A stretch of DNA of 64,000 nucleotides, taken from assembly GCA_964501135.1 (NCBI GenBank), contig CAZCRI010000003.1, positions 18,654 to 82,653 on the forward strand. Direction: 5' to 3'. Shown in pieces: positions 3,962 through 61,491 of the stretch. Source of the DNA: an uncultured Candidatus Saccharibacteria bacterium. GTDB lineage: Bacteria; Patescibacteriota; CPR2; UBA1875; CAIMLA01. The position numbers and the translations under genes were made by a program. Within the stretch, counting starts at the first letter, position 1. Each line of letters opens with the position of its first letter. The notes under the pieces were generated by a model. It was given only the letters and a program-made list of their open reading frames with translations. It made no database searches and had not been told where the DNA came from.

Positions 3962-3980
3962 AGATTAATATACCCCAGGC

Positions 3981-4014
3981 AACATTCTAACATTCTATAG
4001 AATGTTAGAATGTT
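3981..4014. promoter_or_regulatory. Perfect palindrome copy 1: aacattctaacattcta|tagaatgttagaatgtt = (ACATTCTA)x2 then (TAGAATGT)x2; abuts -35 (ttgaca 4016-4021) of ArsR-like gene
   Basis: Exact reverse-complement symmetry read directly; identical 32-bp core at 4327-4358 and 8224-8255. Confidence 0.85.
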
Positions 4015-7591: not shown

Positions 7592-7605
7592 AATAAGATT
7601 ATACT

Positions 7606-7634
7606 TGACAATTCTGTCCAAAAGACGTATTATA
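7606..7634 (+). promoter_or_regulatory. Promoter TTGACA-N17-TATTAT for high-GC gene 7698-8087
   Basis: ttgaca 7606-7611, 17-nt spacer, tattat 7629-7634. Confidence 0.45.
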
Positions 7635-7697
7635 TGCTGTCGAAATCATTCGACCTACCGACGAGGTTGCCCAAAGGCAACGAGGGGAGGTGGCTTC

Positions 7698-8087
7698 ATG
7701 CCGCCGATTGCTAGCGAAGAAGAGAAGAGGCAGTACATCGAACTTCTCCTGAAGAACGCTCGTAGACTGGACTACCGGTCTATCCTGCGTTCACCGGAAG
7801 TGAAGCAGGAGTTGAACGGTCAGGAACTGCCGTCCAGTCTTCCGGTCTGGACTATTGCCATCGACGCTGATGACACCTACATCGTCACCGGCCTCGACGC
7901 CAAGGGGCAGGAAGTCGTGAACTTCCTCTACACCATCGGTGGAGAAGAGTACGAACCACGACTCACCACCTTTGTGGCCGCCCAGCTGCTCGTCGAAGGG
8001 GCCATCATCGACCTCATCGTCCAGCACGGCCCTGGCCTCTACTCTGATGTCATCATCGACGAGGTTGTTCAGGACATGGTCGGGTAG
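7698..8087 (+). CDS. Hypothetical protein (130 aa), high-GC island gene
   Basis: RBS gaggggagg then ATG at 7698 (ORF track frame opens at 7605); ~58% GC. Confidence 0.5.
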   Translation: MPPIASEEEKRQYIELLLKNARRLDYRSILRSPEVKQELNGQELPSSLPVWTIAIDADDTYIVTGLDAKGQEVVNFLYTIGGEEYEPRLTTFVAAQLLVEGAIIDLIVQHGPGLYSDVIIDEVVQDMVG

Positions 8088-8223
8088 TCGGCATCCACTC
8101 ACAACAAGGTCCGCCAGGAGAAGGCAGCCAGACCCTCGACTTTACCCGAAGTCCGAGCCACATCACGCCCCGTAGGACGTTCTCAACTCGAGAGCGCCCT
8201 CCGGGGCGCTTTCATGTAAAAAT

Positions 8224-8255
8224 ACATTCTAACATTCTATAGAATGTTAGAATGT
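8224..8255. promoter_or_regulatory. Perfect 32-bp palindrome copy 3 upstream of high-GC membrane protein gene
   Basis: acattctaacattctatagaatgttagaatgt exact. Confidence 0.85.
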
Positions 8256-8413
8256 TGTGCTGAGTAATAATTAAGCTAAGGACGGTAAACCCCTTTACAA
8301 AGGCGGAAAAGGGGAATATAATCTGGCCGTCGAGATTCTTCGACGCACTTTGACTGGTGCTTATATTCGAAACGTGGCCTGGCGGCCACCAAGACCTAAG
8401 GAGGCTGGGCCTA

Positions 8414-8965
8414 ATGAACCCAACTCTTCGTTTGACATGGCGCCTCGCGCCCTATATGTTCTTCGCCCTCGGCGGACTGCTCCTCGTAGCTCTCGAACTC
8501 ACCGTCCTGATCCTGATCGGTGTTCACGGTCTGGATGCACTCACGGTGATCGGAACCATCTATCTGGCGTACGTCTGCAAGATGATCGTCGAGTACATGG
8601 GTGGCAACGTGATCGTCAACGAGCTTGGCGAACGCAACGGAAAACCGATCAAGGTCTTCCGTCCTGGCAAGAAGAACATTCGCTTTCTGAAGAAGCTTGG
8701 CTGGTATCACGACTTGGGGAACTACTATCCCGTACTCGTGAACCCTCGTGAGGGCAAGTTTAGCCTCACCAAGCATCTCTTCATGCTCGAACCTGGCTCG
8801 GAGAAGTTCTCCGACCAGCTCCTCGAAGTAGCAGCCACCAACGCGGTGGCCTACGAGGAAATCGCAAAGAAGGTCCAGACCAGCAAGTACTGCGCTTCAA
8901 GTGATCTGAGAAAGTTCGAGAAGGCGAATGCCATCTCGGAGTCAATCAAGGATATCGTGAAGTAG
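8414..8965 (+). CDS. Hypothetical membrane protein (2 TM N-terminus + soluble C-terminus), high-GC island gene
   Basis: RBS aaggagg then ATG 8414 (MNPTLRL...); hydrophobic segments FFALGGLLLVALELTVLILIGV. Confidence 0.5.
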   Translation: MNPTLRLTWRLAPYMFFALGGLLLVALELTVLILIGVHGLDALTVIGTIYLAYVCKMIVEYMGGNVIVNELGERNGKPIKVFRPGKKNIRFLKKLGWYHDLGNYYPVLVNPREGKFSLTKHLFMLEPGSEKFSDQLLEVAATNAVAYEEIAKKVQTSKYCASSDLRKFEKANAISESIKDIVK

Positions 8966-9088: not shown

Positions 9089-9144
9089 ACCTTGTTTTAA
9101 GCACTACTCAAGAGTAGAATGTGGTTATACCAAGGAGAAATTCT

Positions 9145-11250
9145 ATGTCAAACCTTAACCTTAGTGATAACGAAAAACGAGATATTCAAAAATATCTTAC
9201 AGAAAATAAACTGCTCCCAGATAAATACAGGTTTCTTCTTTTTGATTCGACTCGTGAAGTAGAACTTATATGGAATGGCATGTCAGATGATATTGAGAGT
9301 TCAGTATTGCCATTTCAGACAATTGAGCATATTGATGAGCCACGAGATGAAGAGAAGATAAACTCTCAACAAGTGTTATTTGACACCTCGGGAAAACAAA
9401 TCGAAGGATGGTCAAATAAGCTTATCTGGGGCGATAACAAATTTATAATATCCTCACTTAAGAATGGCCCTCTTAGAAAACAGATTGAAGCAGAAGGCGG
9501 ACTAAAGTTAATCTATATAGACCCACCATTTGATGTCGGAGCTGACTTTTCTATGGAGGTAGAAGTTGGAGAGAATAACAGTAAGAATATCTTTACAAAA
9601 AAGCCATCGGTAATTGAAGAGGTCGCATACCGGGACACATGGGGAAAAGGCGCTGACAGCTTCATCTCAATGATATATGAACGACTGAAATTAATGAATG
9701 ATTTATTATCTGAAGACGGAAGTATTTACATACATTGTGACTCACGCGTAAATAGTTATATTCGTCTAATCCTTGACGAAGTGTTTGGAAGAGAAAACTT
9801 TGTAAATGAAATTGCCTGGTGCTACACGAGTGGCGGTGCTGGTAAAACAGCTTTTTCAAAAAAACATGATACGATATACCTCTATTCGAAGGCCAATAAG
9901 CACATTTTTAACATTCAATACTATAAGCGTTATGCCCTAATTCAAGAAGGGGAAGAAGTAGGTTTTGATCCTAGGATACAGTACTATAAAGATGAAAAGG
10001 GGAGAAGTTATCGTTTAAATCTTACTCTTGACTGGTGGAGCGACATTGGAATTGTTTCACCAAATAGCAACACAGAAAGGACGGACTATCCAACACAAAA
10101 GCCAGAGGGCTTACTTCAGAGAATAATTGAGACTTCATCAAATAAGGGCGATTTAGTAGCCGACTTTTTCTGTGGTTCAGGTACAACATTGGCAGTAGCA
10201 GAAAAACTGGGTCGTAAATGGATTGGTTCTGATCTTGGACGGTTTTCAATTCACACCACTCGTAAACGAATGATTGGCGTGCAACGAGAACTAAAAAATG
10301 CCGGGACAGACTTTAGACCATTTGAGATACTTAATATCGGTAAATACGAGAGGGAAAAGTACCTCGGTATTAACGATAGTTTGCGCGATGAAGAAAAACG
10401 AATGCAAAGAGAAAATAAGGAACGCGAATTTATCAAACTCATTCTTTCAGCCTATAAAGCCGAGGCTGTAAATTCCTTTAATAATTTCGTTGGGAAGAAG
10501 CGAGATAGGCTGGTAGCCGTGGGGTCAATTGATACGCCAGTAACAAATGACTTTCTGGAGAATATAATTATTGAGTGCAAAGAAAAGCATATTACAAAAG
10601 TAGACATTCTCGGATTTGACTATGAAATGGGCCTGGACTTTGAAACAACAAAGAAGCTAGGTATTGATGTTCAGTTTAAGGTCATACCTCGAGAAGTATT
10701 TGATAAAAGAGCAATAGAAAGAGGGCAAGTAAAGTTCTATGATGTTGCTTACATTGAAGTTAAACCCATTATCAAGGGCAGAGGAAATGAAAAAGAGGTA
10801 GCAATTGAACTAACCGACTTTAGCGTTTTTTACAATCAGGATAATACCGGAGAGGTTGAGGAAAAATTACAGGCCGGCGGCAGTAAAATTGTTATTGAAA
10901 ATGGACAGGTTATTAAAATTTTCAAGGATAAACAAAGCGGTATAGTAGAACGTGAAACTCTCACGAAGAAATGGACAGACTGGATTGATTATTGGTCTGT
11001 TGACTTTGAATTTGAAAGCAAGAAAGAACTTATCAACATCGCAGATCCCGCAACTGGTAGGGAGGAAAAGAAGTGGACTGGTAATTACATTTTTGAAAAT
11101 GAATGGCAATCCTTTAGAACTAAAAAAAACAGAAACTTAGAGTTAACATCTGCATATAAAATTACGTCGAAGGGTAAAATGAAAATTGCTATCAAGGTAA
11201 TTGATATTTTCGGTAACGATACCACCAAGGTAATTGAGGTGAATGTATGA
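9145..11250 (+). CDS. mod: Type III restriction-modification methyltransferase (Mod), beta-class N6A/N4C MTase
   Basis: Motif IV DPPF (IYIDPPFDV) precedes motif I FCGSGTT (ADFFCGSGTTLAVAEKLGRKWIGSD) with TRD between, the Type III Mod order; RBS aaggaga before ATG 9145; low GC (~37%). Confidence 0.8.
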   Translation: MSNLNLSDNEKRDIQKYLTENKLLPDKYRFLLFDSTREVELIWNGMSDDIESSVLPFQTIEHIDEPRDEEKINSQQVLFDTSGKQIEGWSNKLIWGDNKFIISSLKNGPLRKQIEAEGGLKLIYIDPPFDVGADFSMEVEVGENNSKNIFTKKPSVIEEVAYRDTWGKGADSFISMIYERLKLMNDLLSEDGSIYIHCDSRVNSYIRLILDEVFGRENFVNEIAWCYTSGGAGKTAFSKKHDTIYLYSKANKHIFNIQYYKRYALIQEGEEVGFDPRIQYYKDEKGRSYRLNLTLDWWSDIGIVSPNSNTERTDYPTQKPEGLLQRIIETSSNKGDLVADFFCGSGTTLAVAEKLGRKWIGSDLGRFSIHTTRKRMIGVQRELKNAGTDFRPFEILNIGKYEREKYLGINDSLRDEEKRMQRENKEREFIKLILSAYKAEAVNSFNNFVGKKRDRLVAVGSIDTPVTNDFLENIIIECKEKHITKVDILGFDYEMGLDFETTKKLGIDVQFKVIPREVFDKRAIERGQVKFYDVAYIEVKPIIKGRGNEKEVAIELTDFSVFYNQDNTGEVEEKLQAGGSKIVIENGQVIKIFKDKQSGIVERETLTKKWTDWIDYWSVDFEFESKKELINIADPATGREEKKWTGNYIFENEWQSFRTKKNRNLELTSAYKITSKGKMKIAIKVIDIFGNDTTKVIEVNV

Positions 11251-11804
11251 GCCAGCAATTCATTCCTTTTAGCCATGAGGACATAGAACTAAAAAATGCC
11301 TTGGTCGGTAAAGCAAGGGAATTAAGGAGCTCTGAAGATCTTGGTGCACAACTTTCATCGGCACTAATTTACGCAAGTATTACTGAGTATTTAGCCGAGA
11401 ACTTGTTAGCCAACTTAAGATACCTTGTTTATCGCTCCTCCTATGTTGACTTTGCCGGAATAATATTTATTGATGAGAGAAAGAAGACAAATAAGGCACA
11501 AAAGCAAACACTCGGAGACTCCAAGAACAACCTTGGAAAATACAGTTTCCCAGATAAGCCAGATATTATGGCGGTATTAGAGGAGATAAATAAATCAAGG
11601 AATAATCTATTCCACAATCTCGCCAAAGTTAAAGAGTCGGAATTGCATAAGATAGATACAGACATCAAATGTATACAGAATAATACAGAAGAATTTATTG
11701 AAAAAGTAAATGTACTTTATGCTGGTTTGCAGAAATTGGTAATACCAGAGGCGCCCCAAGTGCCGACTGATACTAAGGAGGGAAAAGAAAATGGCACTGC
11801 ATAA
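11247..11804 (+). CDS. Hypothetical 185-aa protein inserted between mod and res (overlaps both)
   Basis: ATGA overlap with mod stop and 14-nt overlap with res start; no motif recognised. Confidence 0.6.
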   Translation: MSQQFIPFSHEDIELKNALVGKARELRSSEDLGAQLSSALIYASITEYLAENLLANLRYLVYRSSYVDFAGIIFIDERKKTNKAQKQTLGDSKNNLGKYSFPDKPDIMAVLEEINKSRNNLFHNLAKVKESELHKIDTDIKCIQNNTEEFIEKVNVLYAGLQKLVIPEAPQVPTDTKEGKENGTA

Positions 11805-14472
11805 AGATTTTCCTAAGGACAAATTTCAAATACTCGACCCAGCGATTAGATGGTTTCCGGCTGAGGAGGATTTACGTAAGGATGGCTACGAAAAACTCCT
11901 GCCGCCTTTCGTACCTGAGTTAAGGGAAAGAGTAGCGGAGTGGCGTAAGGATCACTATGAGGGTGCTAGTAAGACCTCAAAGGCACTTCTAAGCTGGTGG
12001 TTTAAGGAGCCCCATACTATTTATGGCAAAGATGGTACAAGTATAGCTTTTCAATACTATTTTGCACAAAGAGAAGCCGTAGAAACAATCATCTGGTTAT
12101 ATGAAACGGAAAAAGTAGAGGGTAAATACGATTTAATAAAGTTTGACAAACTGGGACGGGTCAGTCCTAATATGTTTAGTGAAGAGTGGCTACGCTTTGT
12201 TATTAAGATGGCAACAGGTAGTGGCAAGACAAAAGTTATGAGTTTGCTTCTCGCCTGGTCTTACTTTCACAAGCTTTATGAAGAAGGGTCCCAGCTTTCC
12301 AAGAACTTCTTGCTCATAACGCCAAATATCATTGTTCTAGACAGGATTAAAAATGACTTTGTAGGTCTCAAGATATTCTACGAAGACCCAATTCTCCCAG
12401 ACAATGGCTACCATGGTCAAAACTGGCAAGATGATTTTCAGTTAAAGCTTCATCTACAGGATGAGGTTGGTGCTATTTCTAAATCTGGAAACATCTTTCT
12501 AACAAACATACACAGAGTGTATGAAGGAAGCATCAACGAGGCTAGTGCTGATGATGTTGATGTATCAAATTATTTTATGGGCAGTAAGGTGACAGGCAAA
12601 ACTAATGACTCAAAGGTAGATTTGGGTGAAATAGTAAGAGATATTGATGAGCTTATGATAATCAATGATGAAGCGCATCATATCCATGATCCGAATATGG
12701 CTTGGTCAAAGTCAATTGAAGATATTCATAACAAACTTCTACAAAAAGGTGGCAAACTTGCCTTGCAAATTGATGTTACCGCGACGCCAAAAAACAATCG
12801 TGGAGAGATTTTTGTTCAGACCGTAACTGACTACCCACTGGTTGAGGCCATCCACCAGGGTGTTGTCAAAAATCCAGTTTTGCCAGATCTTGCTAGCCAG
12901 GCAAAGTTACAAGAAAAACAAAGCTCAATTTTTTCTGAAAAGTATGAAGACTACATCCGACTTGGTGTAGAAGAGTGGGCCAAAACCTATAAAGAACTTG
13001 AACCGACAGGCAAGAAATCGATCTTGTTCATAATGACTGACGATACCAAGAACTGTGATGACGTAGCTGAGTTTTTAGAGAGGAGCTACGCACAACTCAA
13101 AGGGGCTGTTTTAACAATTCACACTAACCAAAGTGGTGAAATATCAGAGACAGTCTCAGGGAAGAAAGAAAAAGAATTACAAGAACTTCGTAAAAAGGCA
13201 AATGAGATAGATAGTCTTGAGAGTCCGTATAGGGTTATCGTTTCGGTACTTATGCTAAAAGAAGGTTGGGATGTAAAGAACGTAACAACTATCGTGGGGT
13301 TGCGACCATATGGTTCAGACTCAAAAATTCTCCCCGAACAAACTCTCGGTCGCGGTCTTCGTAGAATGTATTTTGGACAAGATGTTGAGGAATACGTGAG
13401 CGTCATCGGTACACCTGCATTTATGGAGTTTGTAGAGTCAATCAAGGCTGAAGGTGTTGAGTTAGAAAAGAGAAGAATGGATCGTTCAGGCACTCCGATT
13501 ACACCGACTGTTATTGAGGTTGATACCGCAAATGTCAAAAAGGATATTGATAATCTAGATATTGAGCTGCCAGTTCTTACTCCGAGAATACAGAGAGAAT
13601 ACAAAAATCTGAATCTTTTGAGTGTTGATAAATTCAAACACAAAAGAATCAAAATAAAACAGTTCTCAGAGGAAGAGAAAAAAGAGATTGTTTTCAAGGA
13701 AATAATTGAAGACAAGTTACATCATACAACAGTCCTGAATAGTTCTATTGAACCTAACTATCAAAGTGTAGTTGGATTCTTTGTTCAACGAATTATGAAA
13801 GAACTAAGGTTGTTCGGTTGCTACGATATACTTTTTGGTAAAGTAAAGGTGTTTATAACTCACGACTTATTTGAAAAGGAAGTTGATCTAAACGACTCCA
13901 ATATTCTGAGAAACCTGTCTGAATTAGAGGCAGTCAAAACAATAGTTGAGACATTCAAAAAGGAAATAAATGACCTGACAGTACAGGATGTTGGTGATAC
14001 TGAAATAAAGAATTATCTCAAAGTAAGTAGCGCGAGACCTTTCGTTGTTACTGATGCTAAATATCTTCTACCGAAGAAAAGCGTATTCAATAAGATAGTT
14101 GGAGATAGTGATTTTGAGCTGGAATTTGCAGATTTTCTTGAGAGAGCTGATGATGTTATTTCATTTGCGAAGAACTACCTAGAAATTCACTTCAAGATTG
14201 ACTATAAAAATGCAAGCGGAGCAATTTCCAGCTATTACCCAGATTTCTTTGTCAAAACAGATAATAAGACGGTCTATATTGTAGAAACTAAGGGACGAGA
14301 AGATCTAGACGATATAGAGAAAATTAAGAGATTGGCACAATGGTGTGAAGACGCAACTGAAAGACAAAAGAAGATAGAATACAAGATGCTTTACGTGAAG
14401 CAAGACGAATGGGAGAGATATAGACCAAGTAAATTCACCGAGTTGATTACTAGTATTGGAATGAAGCCATGA
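11791..14472 (+). CDS. res: Type III restriction enzyme Res subunit (SF2 helicase + C-terminal PD-(D/E)xK nuclease)
   Basis: Walker A MATGSGKTKVM, DEAH box IINDEAHHIHD, helicase motif VI-like region, C-terminal YYPDFFV...VYIVETKGRED nuclease motif. Confidence 0.8.
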   Translation: MALHKDFPKDKFQILDPAIRWFPAEEDLRKDGYEKLLPPFVPELRERVAEWRKDHYEGASKTSKALLSWWFKEPHTIYGKDGTSIAFQYYFAQREAVETIIWLYETEKVEGKYDLIKFDKLGRVSPNMFSEEWLRFVIKMATGSGKTKVMSLLLAWSYFHKLYEEGSQLSKNFLLITPNIIVLDRIKNDFVGLKIFYEDPILPDNGYHGQNWQDDFQLKLHLQDEVGAISKSGNIFLTNIHRVYEGSINEASADDVDVSNYFMGSKVTGKTNDSKVDLGEIVRDIDELMIINDEAHHIHDPNMAWSKSIEDIHNKLLQKGGKLALQIDVTATPKNNRGEIFVQTVTDYPLVEAIHQGVVKNPVLPDLASQAKLQEKQSSIFSEKYEDYIRLGVEEWAKTYKELEPTGKKSILFIMTDDTKNCDDVAEFLERSYAQLKGAVLTIHTNQSGEISETVSGKKEKELQELRKKANEIDSLESPYRVIVSVLMLKEGWDVKNVTTIVGLRPYGSDSKILPEQTLGRGLRRMYFGQDVEEYVSVIGTPAFMEFVESIKAEGVELEKRRMDRSGTPITPTVIEVDTANVKKDIDNLDIELPVLTPRIQREYKNLNLLSVDKFKHKRIKIKQFSEEEKKEIVFKEIIEDKLHHTTVLNSSIEPNYQSVVGFFVQRIMKELRLFGCYDILFGKVKVFITHDLFEKEVDLNDSNILRNLSELEAVKTIVETFKKEINDLTVQDVGDTEIKNYLKVSSARPFVVTDAKYLLPKKSVFNKIVGDSDFELEFADFLERADDVISFAKNYLEIHFKIDYKNASGAISSYYPDFFVKTDNKTVYIVETKGREDLDDIEKIKRLAQWCEDATERQKKIEYKMLYVKQDEWERYRPSKFTELITSIGMKP

Positions 14473-52460: not shown

Positions 52461-53077
52461 TATTTGGCCCCCAATACTTCGTTTGTCTTCTCTAGAGCGT
52501 CAGCGACAAATACCATCGTGTCGGACCAAAGAATGTCATAAACGTTTAGGTTACGGTAATCACATACGCGGACGTTTGAAAGATTACGTGATACTAGGAT
52601 TGCCTGTTCGGTGAGGCCAGTCATAACGACAAGCTTCTTGCCAGTGGCAATCTTCTCGATTGCAAGGGCGAAATCCTTGGTCTTTGTAAACTCAAACTTA
52701 TCTAGAACTACAGAGCTGTCCTTGCGAGTAGCAAGAGCAGAAAGTACCGCTCCTGAACGTTTCTTCTTAAGAACCTTAAGAGTGAAGTTCTGAATCCCCG
52801 TAGGTCCGAAAGTTGTACCACCACCACGCCATAGCGGGTTACGGATAGAACCAGTACGAGCGCGGCCAGTACCCTTCTGAGCGTAAGGTTTCTTACCACC
52901 ACCAGAGACTTCGGCACGTGTCTTTACCTTGGCGCTAGCGGCACGGCGTGCAGCAAGCTGTGCGGTAACAACTTCGTGAATCAGTGCTGGATTTACTGGT
53001 GCATCAAATAAAGTGACTTTTACGTCCTTATCTGCCTGTTTTGTGCCTTTTGTATCGTATACTGCAATCTTCATCAT
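52460..53077 (-). CDS. rplD: 50S ribosomal protein L4
   Basis: Family match. Confidence 0.95.
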   Translation of the reverse strand: MMKIAVYDTKGTKQADKDVKVTLFDAPVNPALIHEVVTAQLAARRAASAKVKTRAEVSGGGKKPYAQKGTGRARTGSIRNPLWRGGGTTFGPTGIQNFTLKVLKKKRSGAVLSALATRKDSSVVLDKFEFTKTKDFALAIEKIATGKKLVVMTGLTEQAILVSRNLSNVRVCDYRNLNVYDILWSDTMVFVADALEKTNEVLGAK

Positions 53078-53700
53078 TAACCTCTCAGCACCACAATCCC
53101 CTTGCGTGGTCCTGGAATAGCACCCTTGATCGCAAGTGTATTGTTTTCTTTATCGATACTAATAATTTCTAGGTTCTTTACAGTCACCTTCTCGGCACCC
53201 ATGTGGCCTGCCATACGCATGCCCTTCATAACGTGCTGAGGATAACCTGCACCAATAGATCCTGGTGCGCGATAGTTGTGTGAGCCATGTGTCTTTGGTC
53301 CAGTTGTAAAGTTGTGACGCTTTACAGTACCTGCAAAACCTTTACCCTTGGAAGTACCAGTAGCAGCAAGGAGCTGGCCAACCTCAAAAGTGTCAACGCT
53401 AATAACGTCGCCAACCTTGATAGTTACCGCTTCTTCACCTTCTGGAGCAACCTCTACGAGATCAAACTCGCGAAGTACTTTTGGCACTGCGCCAGAGCTC
53501 TTGACGTGCCCAGCCAGTGGCTTGTTGATACGTTTGTCCAAGCCAAAACCGAGCTGAACAGCGCTATAGCCGTCAACTTCTGGTGTTTTCACCTGAACAA
53601 CAGTACAAGGACCCGCTTCTACGACGGTCACAGGCACAACAGTACCCTTCTCGTCAAAGATGTGAGTCATTCCGATTTTTTTACCGATCAATGCCTTCAT
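53077..53700 (-). CDS. rplC: 50S ribosomal protein L3
   Basis: Family match. Confidence 0.95.
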   Translation of the reverse strand: MKALIGKKIGMTHIFDEKGTVVPVTVVEAGPCTVVQVKTPEVDGYSAVQLGFGLDKRINKPLAGHVKSSGAVPKVLREFDLVEVAPEGEEAVTIKVGDVISVDTFEVGQLLAATGTSKGKGFAGTVKRHNFTTGPKTHGSHNYRAPGSIGAGYPQHVMKGMRMAGHMGAEKVTVKNLEIISIDKENNTLAIKGAIPGPRKGIVVLRG

Positions 53701-53820
53701 TGTTCATCCTTTTTACTCAATAAAATACTTTTCGACAGACAAACAGTTTCTGCGGGCGTTCGTGCAGACTTGTTCATCCCCCGATGGTTTTTTGCGAATA
53801 TATCTTTTTACGCAAGAACA

Positions 53821-53849
53821 ATTGTATATAAAATATGGGTAAATGTCAA
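53821..53849 (-). promoter_or_regulatory. Consensus promoter TTGACA-N17-TACAAT at the edge of the high-GC insertion, reading into rplC
   Basis: Minus strand: ttgaca (53844-53849), 17-nt spacer, tacaat (53821-53826). Confidence 0.5.
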
Positions 53850-53863
53850 CTATTTTGGTCGAC

Positions 53864-53892
53864 GTGGGCAGCGGGGTTTCCCCGCCGCCCAC
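53864..53892. other. GC-rich stem-loop (gtgggcagcgggg-tttc-ccccgccgcccac) flanked by gtcgac repeats, 3' of island gene 53913-54236
   Basis: 13-bp stem with one mismatch; no clear U-tract. Confidence 0.5.
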
Positions 53893-53912
53893 GGTCGTCG
53901 ACGTTGACGCGT

Positions 53913-54236
53913 CTAGTGGCCCTCGGCCTGCTCCTTACGAGCCCTGTCGATTCGGATAGCCTCCTCGTAGTTGTAGACCGACTTGAGTCGCTTGAAGCCC
54001 TCAGGATTCTCGCGATCAAGTTCCTGCCAAGTTGCGAGGTCCATGCCCCGAAGGGCAAAGATGGTCTCGCGAGCCCGTGTCGCGTCTCCCCACAGATCAG
54101 GTTCGAGCTCGACCGCCTGTTCGACAAGAGTGTCGAGAGTCACCTCGGGGCACCCCTGCTTCCCAGGGATAGCGTACCTCGGTCCCTGACGAATGAAGAA
54201 CAACATCTGAGCATAGAACTGGTCGATTTCGTTCAC
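53913..54236 (-). CDS. Hypothetical protein (107 aa), high-GC insertion between rpsJ and rplC
   Basis: ~56% GC ORF in an operon position that is normally rpsJ directly followed by rplC. Confidence 0.5.
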   Translation of the reverse strand: MNEIDQFYAQMLFFIRQGPRYAIPGKQGCPEVTLDTLVEQAVELEPDLWGDATRARETIFALRGMDLATWQELDRENPEGFKRLKSVYNYEEAIRIDRARKEQAEGH

Positions 54237-54269
54237 TGCATCACCTTCCTCTTTGGCTTCATGGCTATG

Positions 54270-54800
54270 CTAGAAGAGCTCGCCCTGGCCGTCACCGGCA
54301 CCCGTAAGCTTCTGGAACTTGGCCTTCGCTCTCGCTTCTTCCTTGGCCTTCTTCTCGGCCTTCATAGCCCTGTCAGCAGCCATAATCGCCGCTGTGTCGA
54401 GAACGTTCGCCTCGGCACGTGCAAAGATGGCAGACAACTCTGAAGTAGACAACGAGCCGATGGCACGAGAACGGAACTCAACGAGCCGATACTGGCTAGG
54501 CGCCAGCATATCAACGTCGATTCCGTAGTCCATACGCAACTTGGCAGCAATCAGGTGACCGTAATTACGGTCAACAGTATCTCCGTGGTTGTCCTTGAGC
54601 CAGGCATTCTTCTGTTCGACACTGACTACAAAACTCACACGGTATTTGGACCTGCCAAGCACCTCGAACTCAGCCACCCAGGGGCAGTTCGGGCGCTTAA
54701 CTCCAGCTTCTTGCTCTGTAAGCAAAGCTGTCACTGAGACCACCCCTTCCAGGGTACTATTTGACGTCAACGAACACCACTTCACGGTGTGAAGCGACAC
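54270..54800 (-). CDS. Hypothetical protein (up to 176 aa; true start may be internal GTG after ggaagggg), high-GC insertion, K/A/E-rich C-terminus
   Basis: High GC; no motif recognised. Confidence 0.45.
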   Translation of the reverse strand: MSLHTVKWCSLTSNSTLEGVVSVTALLTEQEAGVKRPNCPWVAEFEVLGRSKYRVSFVVSVEQKNAWLKDNHGDTVDRNYGHLIAAKLRMDYGIDVDMLAPSQYRLVEFRSRAIGSLSTSELSAIFARAEANVLDTAAIMAADRAMKAEKKAKEEARAKAKFQKLTGAGDGQGELF

Positions 54801-55259
54801 TATAATTTAATACTAAATTGCCATTTTGTCAATAATCTGACCTTCTCCTCTCCCCGAAAAATCGCCCGGGCTCGCAGCCCCGACTATCCTCGAATGCTAG
54901 AAATTATTGCAAGTTTACTCAGCAAAATTTCGTACAGGGCGTTCTGGGTTCGATTTTTCTTGAACTTTGGGATACCTTTCTTTTAAGAGAAAGGTATCAA
55001 GAAACGTAGTATTAAGATTCCCTTCTTCAAGGGAATGACAGGAAAATGGGGCACAAAGAAATCCTGTCCGATGATTCCGACTGGACGAATATTGGACTCG
55101 TCGGAGAATCAAATTCAAGATGCCAGGAGAAAGGCTGGGTTCCTGGCTTACGACCAGGAATGACAATACCAGTAATCAAAAGGAGCCCCCAGGGGCCCCC
55201 TTTTGATAGTTATTACCCCGACGTTCGTCGGGATCTCGCAAAAGCAATCCGCCTTTGCT

Positions 55260-55580
55260 TTACATCTTGATTTCGATGTCTACTCCGGCTGGAAGTGAAA
55301 GACTCATCAAACTATCTACTGTCTTCGCAGTGAAGTCAGTAATGTCGATCAGGCGCTTGTGCACCCGCATCTCGAACTGTTCACGTGCGTTCTTATTGAC
55401 GTTGCTAGCACGGTTTACGGTGATAGGAGTTCTATCGGTTGGTAGTGGGATTGGTCCTGCTACCTTCGCACCGCTGCGTACTGCAGTCTCAATAATCTGC
55501 GTTGTCGACTGGTCAATAATCTTGTTATCGTAAGCCTTCAGTTTGATTCGGATTCTCTGTTTTTCGTTTTTCTCAGCCAT
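55260..55580 (-). CDS. rpsJ: 30S ribosomal protein S10
   Basis: Start at [18 protein letters not shown] (internal to ORF-track entry). Confidence 0.95.
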
Positions 55581-55629
55581 ATGTCTCCTTCTAGTTCCCA
55601 GGGTCACATTGCCCTGCTATCTATAAGTT

Positions 55630-55665
55630 TTAGTTTATTATAAGATCCCCGCTTGCGCGGGGATC
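55630..55665 (-). terminator. Stem-loop/terminator after tuf
   Basis: gatccccgc-ttgc-gcggggatc followed on minus strand by ttataataaac. Confidence 0.5.
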
Positions 55666-55674
55666 TGTGTGAAT

Positions 55675-56850
55675 CTATTTGTTGATCTTGGTAACTACAC
55701 CAGCGCCAACTGTACGGCCACCTTCGCGGATAGCGAAGCGAAGACCTTCCTCGATAGCGATTGGCTGGATAAGCTTAACGGCCATCTTGACGTTATCGCC
55801 AGGCATAACCATTTCGCCTTCGAACTCGATCTCACCAGTTACATCAGTTGTACGGATGTAGAACTGAGGCTTGTAACCCTTGAAGAAAGGAGTGTGACGT
55901 CCGCCTTCTTCTTTGGTAAGAACGTATACTTCAGCGTCGAACTCAGTATGAGGTGTAATAGAACCAGACTTAGCTAGAACCATTCCGCGCTCAATATCAT
56001 TCTTTTCAATACCGCGTAGTAGTAGGCCAGCATTGTCACCAGCTTGTCCCTGCTCGAGCTGCTTTTTAAACATCTCGATACCAGTAACAACGGTCTTGCG
56101 AGTAGGTTTGATACCAATGATTTCTACTTCGTCGTTGATCTTAACAACACCACGGTCGATACGACCAGTAGCAACTGTACCACGTCCCTTGATAGAGAAA
56201 ACGTCTTCTACAGCCATCATGAAAGGCTTGTCAGTATCACGAGTAGGCTCTGGAATGTATTCATCAAGAGCGTTCATAAGCTCCATGATTGACTCTTCGT
56301 ACTTAGCATCGCCTTCAAGCGCCTTAAGAGCTGAACCACGAATGATAGGTGTGTTGTCACCATCATATTTGTACTTAGTAAGAAGTTCACGAATTTCCAT
56401 CTCAACAAGGTCAAGCATCTCTGCATCATCAACCATGTCGCATTTGTTCATGTAAACAACGATTTGTGGAACACCAACCTGGTAAGCAAGTAGGATGTGC
56501 TCACGAGTCTGTGGCATAGGACCGTCAGTAGCAGCCACAACCAAGATAGCGCCGTCCATCTGTGCAGCACCAGTGATCATGTTCTTTACGTAGTCGGCAT
56601 GTCCAGGACAGTCAACGTGCGCATAGTGACGCTTGTCTGTCTCATACTCTTGATGAGAAGTAGCAATAGTAATACCGCGCTCGCGCTCTTCTGGAGCGTT
56701 GTCGATGTCGGCAAACTTTCTAGCAGTAGCTAGGCCTTTCTTTGCTAGTACAGATGTAATAGCAGCTGTCAGGGTTGTCTTACCATGGTCAACGTGTCCG
56801 ATAGTACCAACGTTTACATGGGGCTTGTCTCTCTTATAAACTTCAGCCAT
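55675..56850 (-). CDS. tuf: Elongation factor Tu
   Basis: [27 protein letters not shown] motifs. Confidence 0.97.
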
Positions 56851-57132
56851 TTGGTCTCCTTGTAAGTTTTTACTTTGTTAATTTTGTTTAATATTCTTGG
56901 TAATACACTTTAAATCCCCCGCGTCCTTCGTGACGTGGCGGATATGTATTCATTTGGCCTACAAATATTACTATATATCACTACTTTGTGCAAGTATTTA
57001 ATAGTGAAAGTTCATAAAATTTGTAATGCCATAAGGTCTATAACGTAGAAGGCCGCGTGCCCGCCTCCTCGTCTGCTTTCGCAGAGAAGTGCGGACCCAC
57101 GGCCCAGAAGGAATTCGTCACCTTCGCTGCGC

Positions 57133-57672
57133 CTAAGCGCTTGGAGAGTGACCACTGTTGGCGAGACGCTCACCTATGGCAAGGTAGAGCACACAGGCGA
57201 GCACGATGAAGGCAGTAACCACAAGCGAGCCGGGCCAAACGGCGAGCGGTGTCCAAAGCAGCCACCGTGGAGCATGGTAACCGACTACTGCCAGTACAGC
57301 GAGGTACTCGACGAAGAGCACTACAGCCGTTACCAGCTTCCAGTGCTCGATTGACGAAAGGACCAAGCCCAACACTGCATACCAGAAGTCGCTGGGATGC
57401 ATCCTCGAACGCGACGCTCTGGAGCCGGCCGTGCGCGGCATCGTGTTGTAGACTCCGCTCTTGTGGCAAGCCACGTTGGAGCAGTGCGGACACTGCCCAG
57501 TAGACTTCTGCCAGAAGCACTGGAAACCACCAGACCACAGAAGGTAAGCGACCAGGGAGACGCCTCCCACAACCGCAAGCGCGAGCAGCGCTACTCCGAA
57601 GACAGCCAGTCTCTCGACCGCATCTCCGAAGAGAACGAGCATCGTCGTGATGCCAACCGTGTCGCTGTTCAT
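57133..57672 (-). CDS. Hypothetical polytopic membrane protein with CPHC motif, high-GC island between fusA and tuf
   Basis: ~62% GC; 4-5 hydrophobic helices; overlaps upstream ORF by ATGA. Confidence 0.5.
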   Translation of the reverse strand: MNSDTVGITTMLVLFGDAVERLAVFGVALLALAVVGGVSLVAYLLWSGGFQCFWQKSTGQCPHCSNVACHKSGVYNTMPRTAGSRASRSRMHPSDFWYAVLGLVLSSIEHWKLVTAVVLFVEYLAVLAVVGYHAPRWLLWTPLAVWPGSLVVTAFIVLACVLYLAIGERLANSGHSPSA

Positions 57673-57929
57673 GACATCCCCAATTCAGTAGGTCTCGGGC
57701 CAAAATCGGCGATGTTTACGACAACGTCCCCTACCTGCAGGTCATGAACCGAATCCTCTTCGGTCACAACCAGAGGCTGTGTGCACAACTGGTAGTTGCG
57801 CTTGTCGGTCTTACCGAGCTGCTCCACCAGCCCACGAGAGTAATCGAGCGTGACAGATGTCGCCAGCGGCGGAAGCTCCTCGGTTGATATCGCCCTACCT
57901 CCCGGCAGGGAGACAATGACTTTACTCAT
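57669..57929 (-). CDS. Hypothetical protein (86 aa; ORF-track alternative 57669-58058), high-GC island
   Basis: RBS ggggggttgacc then ATG at 57929 (MSKVIVSLPGG...). Confidence 0.4.
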   Translation of the reverse strand: MSKVIVSLPGGRAISTEELPPLATSVTLDYSRGLVEQLGKTDKRNYQLCTQPLVVTEEDSVHDLQVGDVVVNIADFGPRPTELGMS

Positions 57930-57949
57930 GGTCAACCCCCCATCTGGCG

Positions 57950-58087
57950 TTAGGCGCCCTCGTCGTTGCCCAACTGAACCGGCAGCAATCCACTCTCGAC
58001 CAGAACCCACAGGCCCCAAGCTGCGAAGCAGACCAAGTAGACCACGGCGGTCCACCACAGGTCACTCAACTTCTTCTTCATATTCAT
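57950..58087 (-). CDS. Possible 45-aa single-TM peptide (MNMKKKLSDLWWTAVVYLVCFAAWGLWVLV...)
   Basis: Hand translation; sits directly downstream of promoter P2; overlaps alternative long ORF so only one of the two can be real. Confidence 0.3.
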   Translation of the reverse strand: MNMKKKLSDLWWTAVVYLVCFAAWGLWVLVESGLLPVQLGNDEGA

Positions 58088-58147
58088 CCCCTCGTCTCTT
58101 CAAGGTGCACGCCGTAAGGCGCATGCACCTTTGGCTTCAATGGCGGT

Positions 58148-58176
58148 ATTATATGCCGAATGGTGGCTAAAATCAA
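58148..58176 (-). promoter_or_regulatory. Promoter P2 TTGATT-N17-TATAAT inside high-GC island
   Basis: Minus strand ttgatt (58171-58176) 17-nt spacer tataat (58148-58153); core ggtattatatgccgaa duplicated at 59150-59166. Confidence 0.5.
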
Positions 58177-58249
58177 GGAAAACGAAAAGGCCACGAACCG
58201 CATGGCCTTCCCGAACTATTGCGAGAAATGCTATTGCGTGTCGTGGCCT

Positions 58250-58570
58250 CTATGTGTACCTCTGGCAGGCAAGGCAGACCCTGAAACCGAAGTCCTTGAC
58301 CAGGATGTTCATCACAGCCTCGTCGACCAGGAAGCATGCCGAGTTTGTAGAGTCACGCCGGCGTTCGGCGTAAATCTCGGCGAATTCTGCACGAAACTCG
58401 TCGAAGTCGACAAGGTCACGGCAGACAAGAACCCGGCAGTTGTTGTAGTAACGTCCGCATGCTGAGTGTGTCCACTCCCTGTCACGCCTTGCGATGTGCA
58501 GTACCTTGGAGCCATCGATTACGACGTACCAGGGCTTCTCACCAGACCTGAGCCGAAAGCTCCTACCCAT
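58250..58570 (-). CDS. Hypothetical protein (106 aa, Cys-rich), high-GC island
   Basis: High GC ORF; no motif recognised. Confidence 0.4.
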   Translation of the reverse strand: MGRSFRLRSGEKPWYVVIDGSKVLHIARRDREWTHSACGRYYNNCRVLVCRDLVDFDEFRAEFAEIYAERRRDSTNSACFLVDEAVMNILVKDFGFRVCLACQRYT

Positions 58571-58596
58571 CAGTTTCCTCCGCTCATGTCGTAACC

Positions 58597-58845
58597 CTAG
58601 CCGAGATCTTCAGCTGCCGTGATAACCTTGGCCAGTACGGAAGCGAGGTTCTTCGCGTCGCTGAGGTCGAGGGTCTGGTACCCTGACGTCGAAGCGTCTA
58701 CCAGGCTCTTGGTCCAGATGCGAACCCTCGGCTCGTCCCCCTTCTTCTCACCAGGATTCGCCATGGCATCGAAAACAGGTGCCTTGATGCACGATTCGAT
58801 CGTAGTACCATCGGCATCCAAGTGCCAAGTATTACCTCTACTCAT
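58597..58845 (-). CDS. Hypothetical protein (82 aa), high-GC island
   Basis: High GC ORF. Confidence 0.4.
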   Translation of the reverse strand: MSRGNTWHLDADGTTIESCIKAPVFDAMANPGEKKGDEPRVRIWTKSLVDASTSGYQTLDLSDAKNLASVLAKVITAAEDLG

Positions 58846-58860
58846 AGTCTTACACCTCCT

Positions 58861-59109
58861 CTACCAGTCTCGCTGATGCTCAGGTACACCACATGCCGCT
58901 AACCAACAGTATCGCACTGCTCGATAGCCGAGATATATGGGTATCCACGAGAGGATAGCCAATCCCTCCTTCCAATTCGGCAGATCCTTCGGCGCCCCCT
59001 CGCTGAAAACAACCCAAAGTAGGGCAACGGCGCCGATCAGCCACAGCAGACCGATGGCCGCGAAAGGAGCAATCTGGACAAACTGGAACAACGTCATCGT
59101 AGACCCCAA
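58861..59109 (-). CDS. Hypothetical small membrane protein (82 aa; may start at second ATG 59097)
   Basis: Two hydrophobic helices; downstream of promoter P1. Confidence 0.45.
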   Translation of the reverse strand: MGSTMTLFQFVQIAPFAAIGLLWLIGAVALLWVVFSEGAPKDLPNWKEGLAILSWIPIYLGYRAVRYCWLAACGVPEHQRDW

Positions 59110-59156
59110 TCTATGGTACGCGCCGCCAGGCGCTTTATACCTGACTTTGTGCCGGT

Positions 59157-59185
59157 ATTATATGCCGAAAACCGGCAATAATCAA
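59157..59185 (-). promoter_or_regulatory. Promoter P1 TTGATT-N17-TATAAT inside high-GC island
   Basis: Minus strand ttgatt (59180-59185) 17-nt spacer tataat (59157-59162). Confidence 0.5.
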
Positions 59186-59316
59186 CGTTTTTAACGCCAA
59201 TTTGCCCTGTGGCGCGTCTACAGCCCCTAGAACACACGATTAATATGACGCGTCTAAAATACGACCACCTAAATACTCCTTGCTTCAGCAAGGGAAGAAA
59301 CGAGATTAGTACCAAT

Positions 59317-59345
59317 CAAAAAGACCTCATTACTGAGGTCTTTTT
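59317..59345 (-). terminator. Rho-independent terminator after fusA
   Basis: aaaaagacctcattactgaggtctttttg. Confidence 0.75.
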
Positions 59346-59370
59346 GTATACAAGAGTTGTACAATCTACT

Positions 59371-61491
59371 TTATTCTGCCTGTTTCTTACCGCGCTTAGC
59401 GATAATTTCCTGGGCAACATTTCCTGGTACTTCCTCGTAGTGATCAAACTCCATAGTACTAGTACCACGACCTTGAGTCATCGAGCGAAGGTTGGTAGCA
59501 TAACCAAACATCTCAGCAAGTGGGACGAAAGCATCTACAATCTTGGCGTTACCACGATCTGACATCTGCTGAATGCGTCCACGCTTTGAGTTTAGGTCAC
59601 CCATAATATCACCCATATACTCTTCTGGTACGGTAACTTCTACCTTCATGATAGGCTCAAGGATGATAGGAGTAGCCTTGCGTACACCTTCCTGAAGCGC
59701 CATGGAACCGGCAATTTTGAAGGCCATTTCGTTCGAGTCAACCTCGTGAAATGAACCGTCATAAAGAGTAACCTTGACGTCAACTACTGGATAACCAGCG
59801 ATAACACCATTGTCGAGAGCTTCCTTGATACCGTTTTGTACCGGGTTGATATATTCTTTTGGAATCGCGCCACCAACAATCTTGTTAATAAACTCAAATC
59901 CTAGACCTTCTTCGTTAGGCTCAATCTCAATCCAAACATGACCATACTGACCACGTCCACCAGACTGACGAACAAACTTACCTTCTTGTTTTACCTTGCC
60001 CTTGATAGACTCACGATAAGCAACCTGAGGTTTACCAACATTTGCCTCGACCTTGAACTCTCGCTTCATACGATCTACAAGGATATCTAGGTGAAGCTCA
60101 CCCATACCAGCGATAATGGTCTGACCAACTTCTTCGTCCGTATGTACACGGAAAGTAGGATCTTCTTCTGCAAGACGTGCAAGTGCCATGCCCATCTTAT
60201 CTTGGTCGGCTTTTGTCTTAGGCTCTATAGCAATCTCGATAACTGGCTCTGGGAATGTAATATTCTCAAGCTTGATTGGATGTGCTACATCGCAAAGAGT
60301 ATCGCCAGTAGTGGTCTTACCAAGACCAACAGCGGCTGCAATATCACCTGAATAAACTTCACTTAGCTCTTCTCTGTGATTTGCGTGCATCTGTACGATA
60401 CGACCGATACGCTCCTTGCTACCAGTAGTGGCATTTAGGACGTATGAACCCTTCTGTAGAACACCACGATATACACGGAAGAAGATAAGCTTACCAACGA
60501 AAGGGTCTGCGGCTACCTTGAAAGCAAGGGCTGCAAATGGCTCATCGTCAGTAGCTGAGATCGCGAGATCATCACCAGTCTTCTCATCGACAGCGTGTGC
60601 TGGAATAACATCAAGTGGTGATGGTAGATAGTCGATGATAGCATCTACAAGTATAGAAACGATTACACCACGACCATCTCCGCCCAAATATGGATAGAAA
60701 TTACCAGAAACTGTCGCTTTACGGACTAGTTTTTTCAACTCTTCAGCAGTAAATGTTCCACCTGCAAGGTATTTTTCCATAGCATCATCGTCATATTCGA
60801 CGACTTTTTCGATAAGCTCTTCACGGTACTTCTCTACCTTGTCCATCATATCTGCAGGAACCTCGACTTCTTCGAGCTTCTTGTCAGTATACTCTTTGTA
60901 CATATAGGCTTTCATCTCGATAAGATCGACGGCACCCTTGATAGTCTGCTCATGACCGATCGGTAAGAAAATAGGATATGCATTTTTAGATAGTCTATCG
61001 CGAACAGAGTCGAGAGTCTTATAAAAGTCTCCACCTGTCTGGTTGATCTTGTTGGCGAAAAACATACGAGGAACGCTGTATTTGTCAGCCTGACGCCATA
61101 CTGTCTCAGACTGTGGCTCTACGCCCATCTTGCCATCCAAAATAACGACAGCACCGTCTAGTACACGCAAAGAACGCTCTACTTCTACAGTAAAGTCCAC
61201 GTGACCAGGAGTGTCGATGATATTGATACGGTGTTTTTTCCAGAAACAAGTAGTAGCAGCGGAAGTAATCGTGATACCACGCTCTTGTTCTTGCTCCATC
61301 CAGTCCATAGTTGCGGCACCTTCATGCACTTCACCGATCTTGTGAACACGTCCTGAGATATACAAGATACCTTCTGTGACAGTGGTCTTACCTGCATCGA
61401 TGTGCGCAATAGTACCAATATTTCTAGTTTTTTCGAGTGAATATTCTCTAGGCATATAGTTAAGCTCCAATTTCCAAGTACCAAATTCCAA
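59371..61491 (-). CDS. fusA: Elongation factor G
   Basis: [21 protein letters not shown] motifs; 706 aa. Confidence 0.97.

Follow-up and report, generated by a model that had tools for sequence, protein, structure and literature searches.

A probable cassette slot between rpsJ and rplC in Saccharibacteria: a shared expression frame around variable cargo

Organisation of the rpsJ-rplC junction

The DNA analysed here, called the window throughout, is a stretch of 64,000 nucleotides from contig CAZCRI010000003.1 of an uncultured Candidatus Saccharibacteria bacterium. The subject of the study is the spacer between its ribosomal protein (r-protein) genes rpsJ and rplC, which holds two small genes set in a frame of a putative promoter, short sequence boxes and a hairpin. 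The genes of this region are oriented on the minus strand in the order rpoC'-rpsL-rpsG-fusA, a gap of 2.5 kb, tuf-rpsJ, a gap of 1.56 kb and rplC-rplD-rplW-rplB onward. The distance from rpsJ to rplC was measured at 1559 bp (53701-55259), in agreement with the approximately 1.5 kb given in the original prediction, which had been made from the letters of the sequence alone. Both co-directional open reading frames (ORFs) that it described are present, and the length of the smaller one (107 aa) was right; the larger probably encodes 154 aa and not 176 aa. The larger ORF most likely starts with the GTG at 54734, and this start is preferred because the Shine-Dalgarno (SD) sequence GGAAGGGGTG precedes it, the NCBI call agrees and the homologues begin there. 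A putative promoter of the cassette's own precedes the first ORF, and the cassette ends in a GC-rich hairpin flanked by GTCGAC, both as had been claimed. The features of the junction are listed in Table 1.

Table 1. Features of the rpsJ-rplC junction in the window, from rpsJ to rplC
Feature	Position	Strand	Description and basis
rpsJ (uS10)	55260-55607	-	Last gene of the rpsL-rpsG-fusA-...-tuf-rpsJ unit; ORF list
Intrinsic terminator of the str unit	55175-55207	-	AAAAGGGGGCCCC-T-GGGGGCTCCTTTT; inverted repeat with 16-nt arms
Conserved non-coding filler	54866-55174	-	Rich in short GTCATTCC...GGAAT-type hairpins; alignment to L002
Putative slot promoter	54804-54832	-	TTGACA-N17-TAAATT, then ATAGTGTC; matches 10/12 positions
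5' hairpin	54777-54797	-	Where the cassette transcript is predicted to begin; RNAfold
5' box	54761-54770	-	TTGACGTCAA, perfect 10-bp palindrome; read from sequence
SD sequence	54750-54741	-	GGAAGGGGTG, after the 5' box; read from sequence
Cargo gene 1 (ORF154)	54270-54734	-	GTG start at 54734, 154 aa; earlier listed as 54270-54800, 176 aa
Cargo gene 2 (ORF107)	53913-54236	-	107 aa; confirmed in the ORF list
3' box and two-tier hairpin	53858-53908	-	Box GTCAACGTCGAC; GTCGAC/GTCGAC outer stem, GACC asymmetric loop, 13-bp GC inner stem
Putative rplC (S10/spc operon) promoter	53821-53849	-	TTGACA-N17-TACAAT; matches 11/12 positions
rplC leader	53701-53820	-	Interrupted stem 53784-53732 around a variable hairpin, U-rich tract GUAUUUUAUUG (~53728-53718), SD
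rplC (uL3)	53077-53700	-	Heads the downstream r-protein operon; ORF list; served as search query

Frame and cargo in related loci

The frame was compared in the window and in the loci L002, L082, L004 (=L092), L030, L084, L088 and L089. L002 belongs to the Patescibacteria metagenome-assembled genome (MAG) JTS-AC303, was found by scanning GTDB species genomes with the rplC protein and has r-protein genes ~90% identical to those of the window at the DNA level. The rpsJ proteins of the two are 99% identical in amino acid sequence, and the Pfam domain Ribosomal_S10 was found in syntenic loci. The frame begins with the rpsJ terminator, followed in some genomes by ~300 nt of hairpin-rich filler, then by the predicted promoter TTGACAAA...TAnATT-ATAGTGTC, a hairpin at the transcript start whose sequence differs in each lineage, a GACGTC-type TTGACGTC(R)A box, a strong SD and the cargo ORF or ORFs. 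A (T)TCGACGTC(GAC) box is located 0-20 nt from the stop codon and is fused to a two-tier hairpin lacking a U tract; the rplC promoter comes next, beginning 9-37 nt 3' of the terminal cassette hairpin. The TTGACA-N17-TAnATT motif is conserved directly before the first unit, ahead of unrelated cargo, in the window, L002, L082, L004, L030 and L089 and more loosely in L084, and probably represents a common promoter of the array. The 5' untranslated region behind it is likewise kept ahead of unrelated cargo in the window, L002, L082, L004, L030 and L089.

The cargo varies within this frame. Each genome carries one to five expression units, with one or two small ORFs of high GC-content at third codon positions (GC3) in each, and the window has a single two-gene unit. 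The family of ORF154 occupies the slot in the window, L002, L082, L083 and L084, and other orphan genes are present in L004, L030 and L088. Locus L089 contains five different ORFs in five tandem units, each built as box, SD, ORF, box and hairpin.

Homology between genomes, and between the units of one array, breaks at the boxes. An 82-nt spacer occurs three times in L089 (70-88% identity) and stops exactly at the 5' box, and the hairpins of units 3 and 5 of this array are 98% identical while the ORFs in front of them are unrelated. Between L004 and unit 1 of L089, the promoter and 5' untranslated region (UTR) are 84.6% identical over 65 nt, the similarity stopping right after ACGTCGACAA; it resumes at TTCGACGT, with a hairpin 84.9% identical over 53 nt, and the cargo between shows no similarity. 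In L002, a third gene stands between two copies of one 52-bp hairpin; the window lacks this gene and contains the hairpin once. Locus L091 is identical to part of L089 and gave no independent support; of the eight metagenome matches to the leader pattern, three (L087, L090 and L094) had no query-protein match and no similarity to L089 and were set aside.

Boxes and hairpins

A GACGTC-type box was found 25-38 nt 5' of the start codon in 13 of the 15 cassettes, in the form TTGACGTCAA in the window, TTTGACGTCGARC in L089 and ACGTCGACAA in L004. At the position of the 5' hairpin of the window, L002, L082, L004, L030, L084 and the units of L089 have a hairpin of different sequence. The terminal hairpin of the window (53858-53902) reads GTCGAC-GACC-GTGGGCGGCGGGG-AAA-CCCCGCTGCCCAC-GTCGAC and has a predicted free energy of -37.2 kcal/mol (z = -5.3, none of 200 shuffled sequences being as stable). 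Hairpins of this same type stand behind cassettes in L002 (twice), L082 and L089 (unit 2), and hairpins of the same architecture with another sequence in L004, L030, L083, L084 and L089. All cassette hairpins are unusually stable, with energies of -26 to -39 kcal/mol and z from -3.5 to -7.3. Every one of the 14 elements folds into an outer stem of 4-8 bp, an asymmetric loop of 2-4 nt and an inner stem of 10-13 bp, with at least four unrelated inner sequences among them.

The hairpin at 53858-53902 has no U tract, being followed by CAAAAUAG, and the terminator scan did not report it. In the same loci, the rpsJ and fusA terminators do have U tracts and, since canonical terminators of this kind are used elsewhere in the region, the U-less two-tier hairpins constitute a distinct class. 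The 5' box with its SD (TTGACGTCGARCACCGGAAGGGGTG) resembles the 3' box with the 5' arm of the hairpin (TTGACGTCGACGACCGTTGGGGGTG); therefore, each cargo is flanked by imperfect direct repeats of ~25 nt. In 1.3 Mb of fetched loci, the box-plus-hairpin elements of Saccharibacteria were restricted to the rpsJ-rplC slot.

Several other origins of these motifs were considered and rejected. A dispersed hairpin of the repetitive extragenic palindromic type does not fit an element that is present in a single copy in the window and that, in the Saccharibacteria loci fetched, was confined to the slot. A restriction-modification signature was rejected because the counts of GTCGAC and GACGTC in the window, 16 and 10, are close to the expected 11.9. 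Viral matches to the hairpin pattern in IMG/VR were attributed to chance, as they occur in phages with a GC-content of 61-72%.

A simpler account would dispense with a cassette mechanism. Ordinary lineage-specific accessory genes would occupy an inter-operon gap, the boxes and hairpins being their 5' UTR and a terminator without U residues, and the content would differ between genomes through deletion, duplication or replacement of the whole locus by homologous recombination in the core genes on either side. Such gaps in the conserved core often serve as hot spots for flexible genes. The absence of a recombinase nearby, a divergence of ORF154 roughly congruent with the host tree and one cargo change that involves no box all suit this account. 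Replacement of the whole locus, however, fails to explain one hairpin standing behind unrelated ORFs in units 3 and 5 of L089, one frame around unrelated cargo in L004 and unit 1 of L089, the duplication of the hairpin around gene 3 of L002 and the fivefold tandem reiteration of spacer, box and SD in L089. In addition, the two-tier hairpins differ from the U-tract terminators of the region. We consider this account unlikely, though it deserves to be kept in view.

Cargo genes ORF154 and ORF107

Both cargo genes of the window are present at the same junction in L002, with amino acid identities of 56-60% for ORF154 and 65% for ORF107. The ratios of nonsynonymous to synonymous substitution rates (dN/dS) against the L002 orthologues are 0.19 and 0.30, respectively; hence, ORF154 and ORF107 are real, fast-evolving coding genes under purifying selection. 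A search among 5.8 billion proteins returned self matches only for both. Exhaustive comparison with phmmer against 1.84 billion cluster representatives matched ORF154 to four proteins, namely the L002 orthologue and three distant relatives with 34-43% identity. These three and one more member of the same 90% cluster (L082, L083, L084-86, L095) are all encoded between rpsJ and rplC. A profile search with the ORF154 family found no further members, and ORF107 had no relative beyond L002. Judged from these searches, the ORF154 family is tiny, represented in five lineages and confined to the rpsJ-rplC junction. This position could also be explained if the family were a lineage-specific ribosome- or translation-associated protein located here for that function, which seems improbable to us.

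In trees of rpsJ+rplC and of tuf+rpsJ, the carriers of ORF154 (the window, L002, L082 and the L083/L084 pair) interleave with the non-carriers L030, L003, L004, L088 and L089. Because of this interleaving, and because the divergence of the family broadly follows the host tree, the sequence comparison indicates that ORF154 is an old resident which was replaced in some lineages, and not a recent arrival.

ORF154 is predicted to fold into a small beta-beta-alpha-alpha-beta domain (AlphaFold2 model of residues 7-96; mean predicted local distance difference test score 83, predicted template modelling score 0.73), followed by a long basic helix rich in Lys, Ala and Glu and then by a conserved C-terminal tail. 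The tail reads GQGELF in the window and GQGSLF or DVPMF in relatives. No match was found for ORF154 in Pfam, PHROGs, PADLOC or the PDB or by fold, nor for ORF107 in Pfam, PHROGs or PADLOC. The Pfam, PHROGs and PADLOC scans of these two and ten other cargo proteins gave nothing useful, a PDB sequence-profile search returned noise only, and the scans of IMG/VR with ORF154 and ORF107 revealed no true relatives. The cargo proteins are small, lineage-restricted and cytosolic or membrane-bound. With low confidence, they are suspected of an accessory part in conflict systems or in the epibiotic way of life.

Two small proteins encoded as an operon, with a putative promoter of its own, in a variable locus would also suit a toxin-antitoxin module or another defence system. 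Even at permissive thresholds, Pfam, PADLOC and PHROGs gave no match in support of this, and homologues of ORF154 occur without ORF107, with another partner in L082 and alone in L083, L084 and L095. We find this explanation scarcely credible.

Base composition

The original prediction had described a GC-rich stretch at about 53850-54810 and proposed a windowed analysis as a check. In 200-nt windows, the GC-content is 0.53-0.605 across 53800-54799 and 0.41-0.50 in the flanks. The block 53850-54810 has a GC-content of 0.559, against a mean of 0.459 (sd 0.038) for the whole window, which bears the description out. Only 1.3% of 960-nt windows are as GC-rich, and all of them lie in a second island, in the gap between fusA and tuf. 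The GC3 values of the two ORFs are 0.63 and 0.70, compared with 0.445 (sd 0.058, maximum 0.58) for 55 ordinary genes (z = 3.2 and 4.5), so that the predicted two-gene cassette of distinct composition on the operon strand agrees with both measures.

The same feature is common to the cargo of the related loci. The 17 cargo ORFs examined come from unrelated families, yet every one of them has a GC3 of 0.58-0.81; in the rplC and rpsJ genes of their genomes, it is 0.28-0.53. The prs and HD genes that share the gap in L083 and L084, like a 405-aa ORF of L084, stay within the host range (GC3 0.33-0.44). A single recent transfer cannot account for this pattern. Candidate causes are GC-biased gene conversion where recombination is frequent, a continuous re-supply of genes from a GC-rich pool, and selection acting on the RNA; under the cassette-slot interpretation, the high GC3 would be a trace of recombination history or of a shared pool, and not of one recent foreign insertion.

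The abrupt step in GC-content at the borders could in principle betray an assembly or binning artefact, with a high-GC fragment joined chimerically into a Saccharibacteria contig. However, an independent Logan read assembly (ERR3839025) is 100% identical to the window from 54919 to 53672, crossing the island into rplC, and so the junction of the island with rplC is not an artefact of assembly. The same architecture was also assembled independently in L002, L082, L084-86, L088, L089 and L095. The probability of an artefact is negligible.

The rplC promoter, its leader and the split of the S10 operon

The near-consensus promoter reading into rplC at the edge of the island is present as a sequence, as the original prediction had stated. 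The further claim that the island supplied it and so restored transcription of an interrupted operon did not survive comparison with relatives. In an alignment of the window, L002, L003, L004 and L030, the TTGAC -35 element, the 17-nt spacing, the -10 element and a leader of ~120 nt are kept regardless of the content upstream, including where the cassette cargo is unrelated or absent. A TTGACx -35 element with a -10 element of the TAnnnT type was also found upstream of rplC in L082, L084, L088, L089 and the majority of more distantly related Saccharimonadia loci; no such promoter was evident upstream of rplC in L012 and L021. Because promoter and leader are conserved whatever lies upstream, the putative promoter is ancestral; it belongs to rplC and was not brought by the island.

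The leader contains a conserved structure. Folding of 17 Saccharimonadia sequences with RNAalifold gave a stem of 14 pairs, with compensatory changes in 12 of them; 87.9% of the cells are paired compared with 35-51% in slid controls, and none of 500 shuffles reached the observed values. The minimum-energy fold of the window leader taken singly agrees with this stem. The cmscan search at E <= 5 over 53600-59500 returned no leader family of Rfam, the leader is absent from Rfam 15, and no family was assigned within the gap at gathering or permissive thresholds. The leader is a candidate for an autoregulatory (L4/L3) or attenuator element of the r-protein operon. It is similar to the S10 operon leader of E. 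coli in having a long structured stem and a U-rich tract before the first gene of an operon encoding L3 and L4. Unlike that leader, which acts by L4-mediated attenuation and translational control, it precedes rplC instead of rpsJ, and it has no similarity to Rfam leaders.

The separation of rpsJ from rplC proved to be a feature of the lineage. The two genes are 0.5-6.6 kb apart in all Saccharimonadia loci that were retrieved (511-6590 bp in 14 loci), whereas the distance in nearly all loci outside the Candidate Phyla Radiation (CPR) retrieved by the same search is 24-364 bp. The content of the gap in Saccharimonadia ranges from small orphan ORFs to genes for radical-SAM, aminotransferase, Nudix, ABC transporter and PHP-domain proteins, prs and HD hydrolases. 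A gap of ~2.7 kb was also observed in Neopusillimonas/Pusillimonas (L069 and L070, non-CPR Alcaligenaceae); a filled gap is, hence, not exclusive to Patescibacteria. A canonical U-tract terminator is found at the same site after rpsJ in the window, L002, L082, L004, L030, L088 and L089. The locus, described at first as an unusual interruption of the operon, is thus an inter-operon gap shared across Saccharimonadia. On the sequence evidence, the canonical S10 operon is split in this lineage, and rplC stands first in a separate operon, behind a structured leader and an ancestral promoter that appears to be of the sigma70 type. The literature that could be searched describes neither the rpsJ|rplC split nor a cassette array nor this leader for Saccharibacteria.

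These data also bear on the explanation that a recent high-GC horizontal island split an intact S10 operon and brought along a promoter to restore the transcription of rplC. In its favour, the island does differ in composition (GC3 z 3.2-4.5), a near-consensus promoter does stand at its edge and, outside the clade, the cargo proteins are without homologues. Against this, the split, the rpsJ terminator and the rplC promoter with its leader are common to relatives with other cargo, and no integrase, transposase, target-site duplication, PHROGs match or viral-contig match was found. The original prediction had noted that the same genes at the same junction in many relatives, with similar GC-content, would argue for an ancestral feature of the lineage. 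This is largely what the comparison of junctions revealed: both genes are present at this junction in L002, and the family of the larger one occurs at it in four further lineages, always with a high GC-content and at 30-60% amino acid identity, which implies old residence. A recent insertion can be given very little weight.

The filler between the rpsJ terminator and the slot promoter falls inside a 3.2-kb BLAST alignment to L002 with an overall identity of 81%. Its 3' end is a terminator-like hairpin (54883-54866), and the filler has no Rfam match. The filler may represent a small RNA or a repeat element in decay. The counterpart in L002 is located at 7975-8260, and a related 46-nt piece follows fusA in the same locus (4483-4528).

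Interpretation as a cassette slot

Taken together, the rpsJ-rplC spacer of the window can be interpreted as the local copy of a conserved, promoter-equipped cassette slot of a family-level clade of Saccharibacteria, which is integron-like and has neither an adjacent integrase nor attC cores. We assign this interpretation a probability of roughly 0.6. Its parts differ in strength. The descriptive part, comprising the frame, its conservation, the ancestral promoter with the leader and the junction-specific protein family, is held with high confidence. The proposal that the cargo is exchanged by recombination at the boxes is plausible, at slightly below even odds.

In the proposed mechanism, the cargo would be gained, lost and swapped by homologous or site-specific recombination at the ~25-nt box/arm repeats flanking it. 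The slot promoter and the box-linked SD would express whatever cargo is inserted, and the terminal hairpin would end or stabilise the cassette transcript and insulate the adjacent rplC promoter. Recombination at the boxes would be assisted by natural transformation, followed by homologous recombination in the r-protein genes on either side. Saccharibacteria have been documented experimentally to be naturally competent and to integrate DNA by homologous recombination (PMC10633639).

Several observations weigh against the cassette-slot interpretation. No recombinase adjoins the slot, the immediate neighbours of which are rpsJ and rplC. The boxes are short and could be merely conserved UTR and terminator sequence, with homology breaking where function ends. 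Gene 2 is ORF107 in the window and L002 and an unrelated membrane protein of 106 aa in L082, with no box between genes 1 and 2; therefore, not all change of cargo is box-mediated. Two of the 15 cassettes have no clear box at one end (L088 and unit B of L083). The parallel between ORF154 divergence and the host tree suits long vertical residence equally well as mobility, and the GC3 anomaly of the cargo is left unexplained by the model. Finally, the evidence is based on about ten MAG or metagenome contigs.

A bolder reading of the same frame is an undescribed gene-capture system inside the r-protein gene cluster, in which a promoter-equipped array would take in, release and rearrange promoterless ORFs by site-specific, possibly hairpin- or single-stranded-DNA-based recombination at the GACGTCGAC boxes. 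The SD, too, would come from the boxes, and the whole would be a functional analogue of the integron with different sites and with a recombinase encoded elsewhere or not recognised as such. We put this forward tentatively and regard it as doubtful.

Comparison with known systems

Among known systems, the cassette slot was compared with integron arrays and especially with clusters of attC sites lacking an integrase (CALINs). Both have a promoter at the head, a predicted one in the slot, and unidirectional, small, mostly uncharacterised ORFs. In their predicted folds, the imperfect inverted repeats that close the units of the slot resemble attC sites, with two stems around an asymmetric loop, conserved outer arms and a variable interior. 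The number and identity of cassettes vary among close relatives, and the composition of the cargo is unlike that of the host. The differences concern the features by which integrons are defined. No IntI gene was found next to the array, rpsJ and rplC being the neighbours in the window, L002, L082, L088, L089 and L095. No RYYYAAC/GTTRRRY cores are present; the outer arms are GTCGAC/GTCGAC or CGACG/CGTC, with GACGTC before them. The ORFs are not tied to an attC of their own, as near-identical hairpins stand behind unrelated ORFs: the window-type hairpin follows ORF154 with ORF107, gene 3 of L002, the gene pair of L082 and unit 2 of L089. The hairpins of the slot are also shorter (45-52 nt), its units add a 5' box with an SD and often a spacer of ~60 nt, and it is located inside an r-protein gene cluster. 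In its presumed working, the arrangement is most like a CALIN, yet it lacks the defining integron features of an adjacent IntI, the cores and cargo-tied hairpins.

The pdif/Xer modules of Acinetobacter plasmids are similar in being small modules bounded by short repeated sites of a recombination type and combined differently in related replicons. Unlike them, the slot has no 28-bp XerC/XerD-type site, its repeats are direct and not inverted pairs, and it is chromosomal and fixed in position. Flexible islands between core genes share the fixed position, the variable content and the link with natural competence (PMC10633639); the conserved promoter, the repeated frame of box, SD and hairpin and the tandem reiteration distinguish the slot from them.

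Other features of the window

The second high-GC island is located between fusA and tuf (56851-59370, minus strand; GC 0.55-0.62) and consists of two tandem units. A copy of one putative promoter, TTGATT-N17-TATAAT, precedes each unit (59185-59157 and 58176-58148) inside a 36-nt repeat that is 81% identical, and a U-tract terminator (58213-58183) stands between the units. The units contain about three small, high-GC3 ORFs apiece, several of which encode membrane proteins, and GACGTC boxes were not seen where the units meet their borders. The same fusA|tuf gap holds homologues of ORF179, ORF129 and ORF106 in L082, L002/L030 and L088, and five orphan ORFs in L095. Under the bolder reading of a gene-capture system, this gap may be a second expression platform of that kind. 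The fusA proteins (gene at 59371-61491) of the window and L002 are 79% identical, with a synonymous divergence (dS) of 1.5, compared with 99-100% identity and dS of 0.2-0.6 for tuf, rpsJ, rplC and rplD, which suggests that part of fusA was replaced by recombination beside the variable gap.

A perfect 32-nt palindrome, ACATTCTAACATTCTATAGAATGTTAGAATGT, occurs twice (~3979-4012 and 8224-8257), each copy just 5' of the predicted promoter of a gene with high GC3, namely a sigma factor similar to the extracytoplasmic function type (3269-3877, minus strand) and an ORF ending at 8965 on the plus strand. Its two copies resemble operator sites for one regulator of the GC-rich accessory genes. Isolated genes with GC3 of 0.65-0.72 are located at 3269-3877(-), 7605-8087(+) and 8357-8965(+); each has its own strong predicted promoter, a 5' hairpin (often GTCGA...TCGAC) and an SD of the GGAGG type. 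One of them encodes the protein of the sigma-70 family (Pfam r2 and r4 regions) and carries TTCGACGTCTC, which resembles the 5' box of the cassettes, 16 nt 5' of its start codon. In addition, a low-GC block at 9121-14472(+), with a GC-content of 0.37-0.38 and GC3 of 0.34-0.37 against a background of 46%, contains three co-directional ORFs of 709, 185 and 893 aa and is probably a separately acquired island.

Biological significance

The genomes of Patescibacteria are tiny and contain few recognised mobile elements, and the ways in which these bacteria acquire and express new genes are poorly understood. If the cassette-slot interpretation is true, a fixed slot with a promoter of its own, situated beside the most highly expressed operons and swapping small ORFs among relatives would be a simple device for gene capture and expression. 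Such a slot would also be a natural 'landing pad' for the engineering of the now-transformable Saccharibacteria. Its lineage-restricted, fast-evolving, GC-rich cargo genes are candidates for functions in host interaction or conflict in the epibiotic lifestyle of these bacteria.

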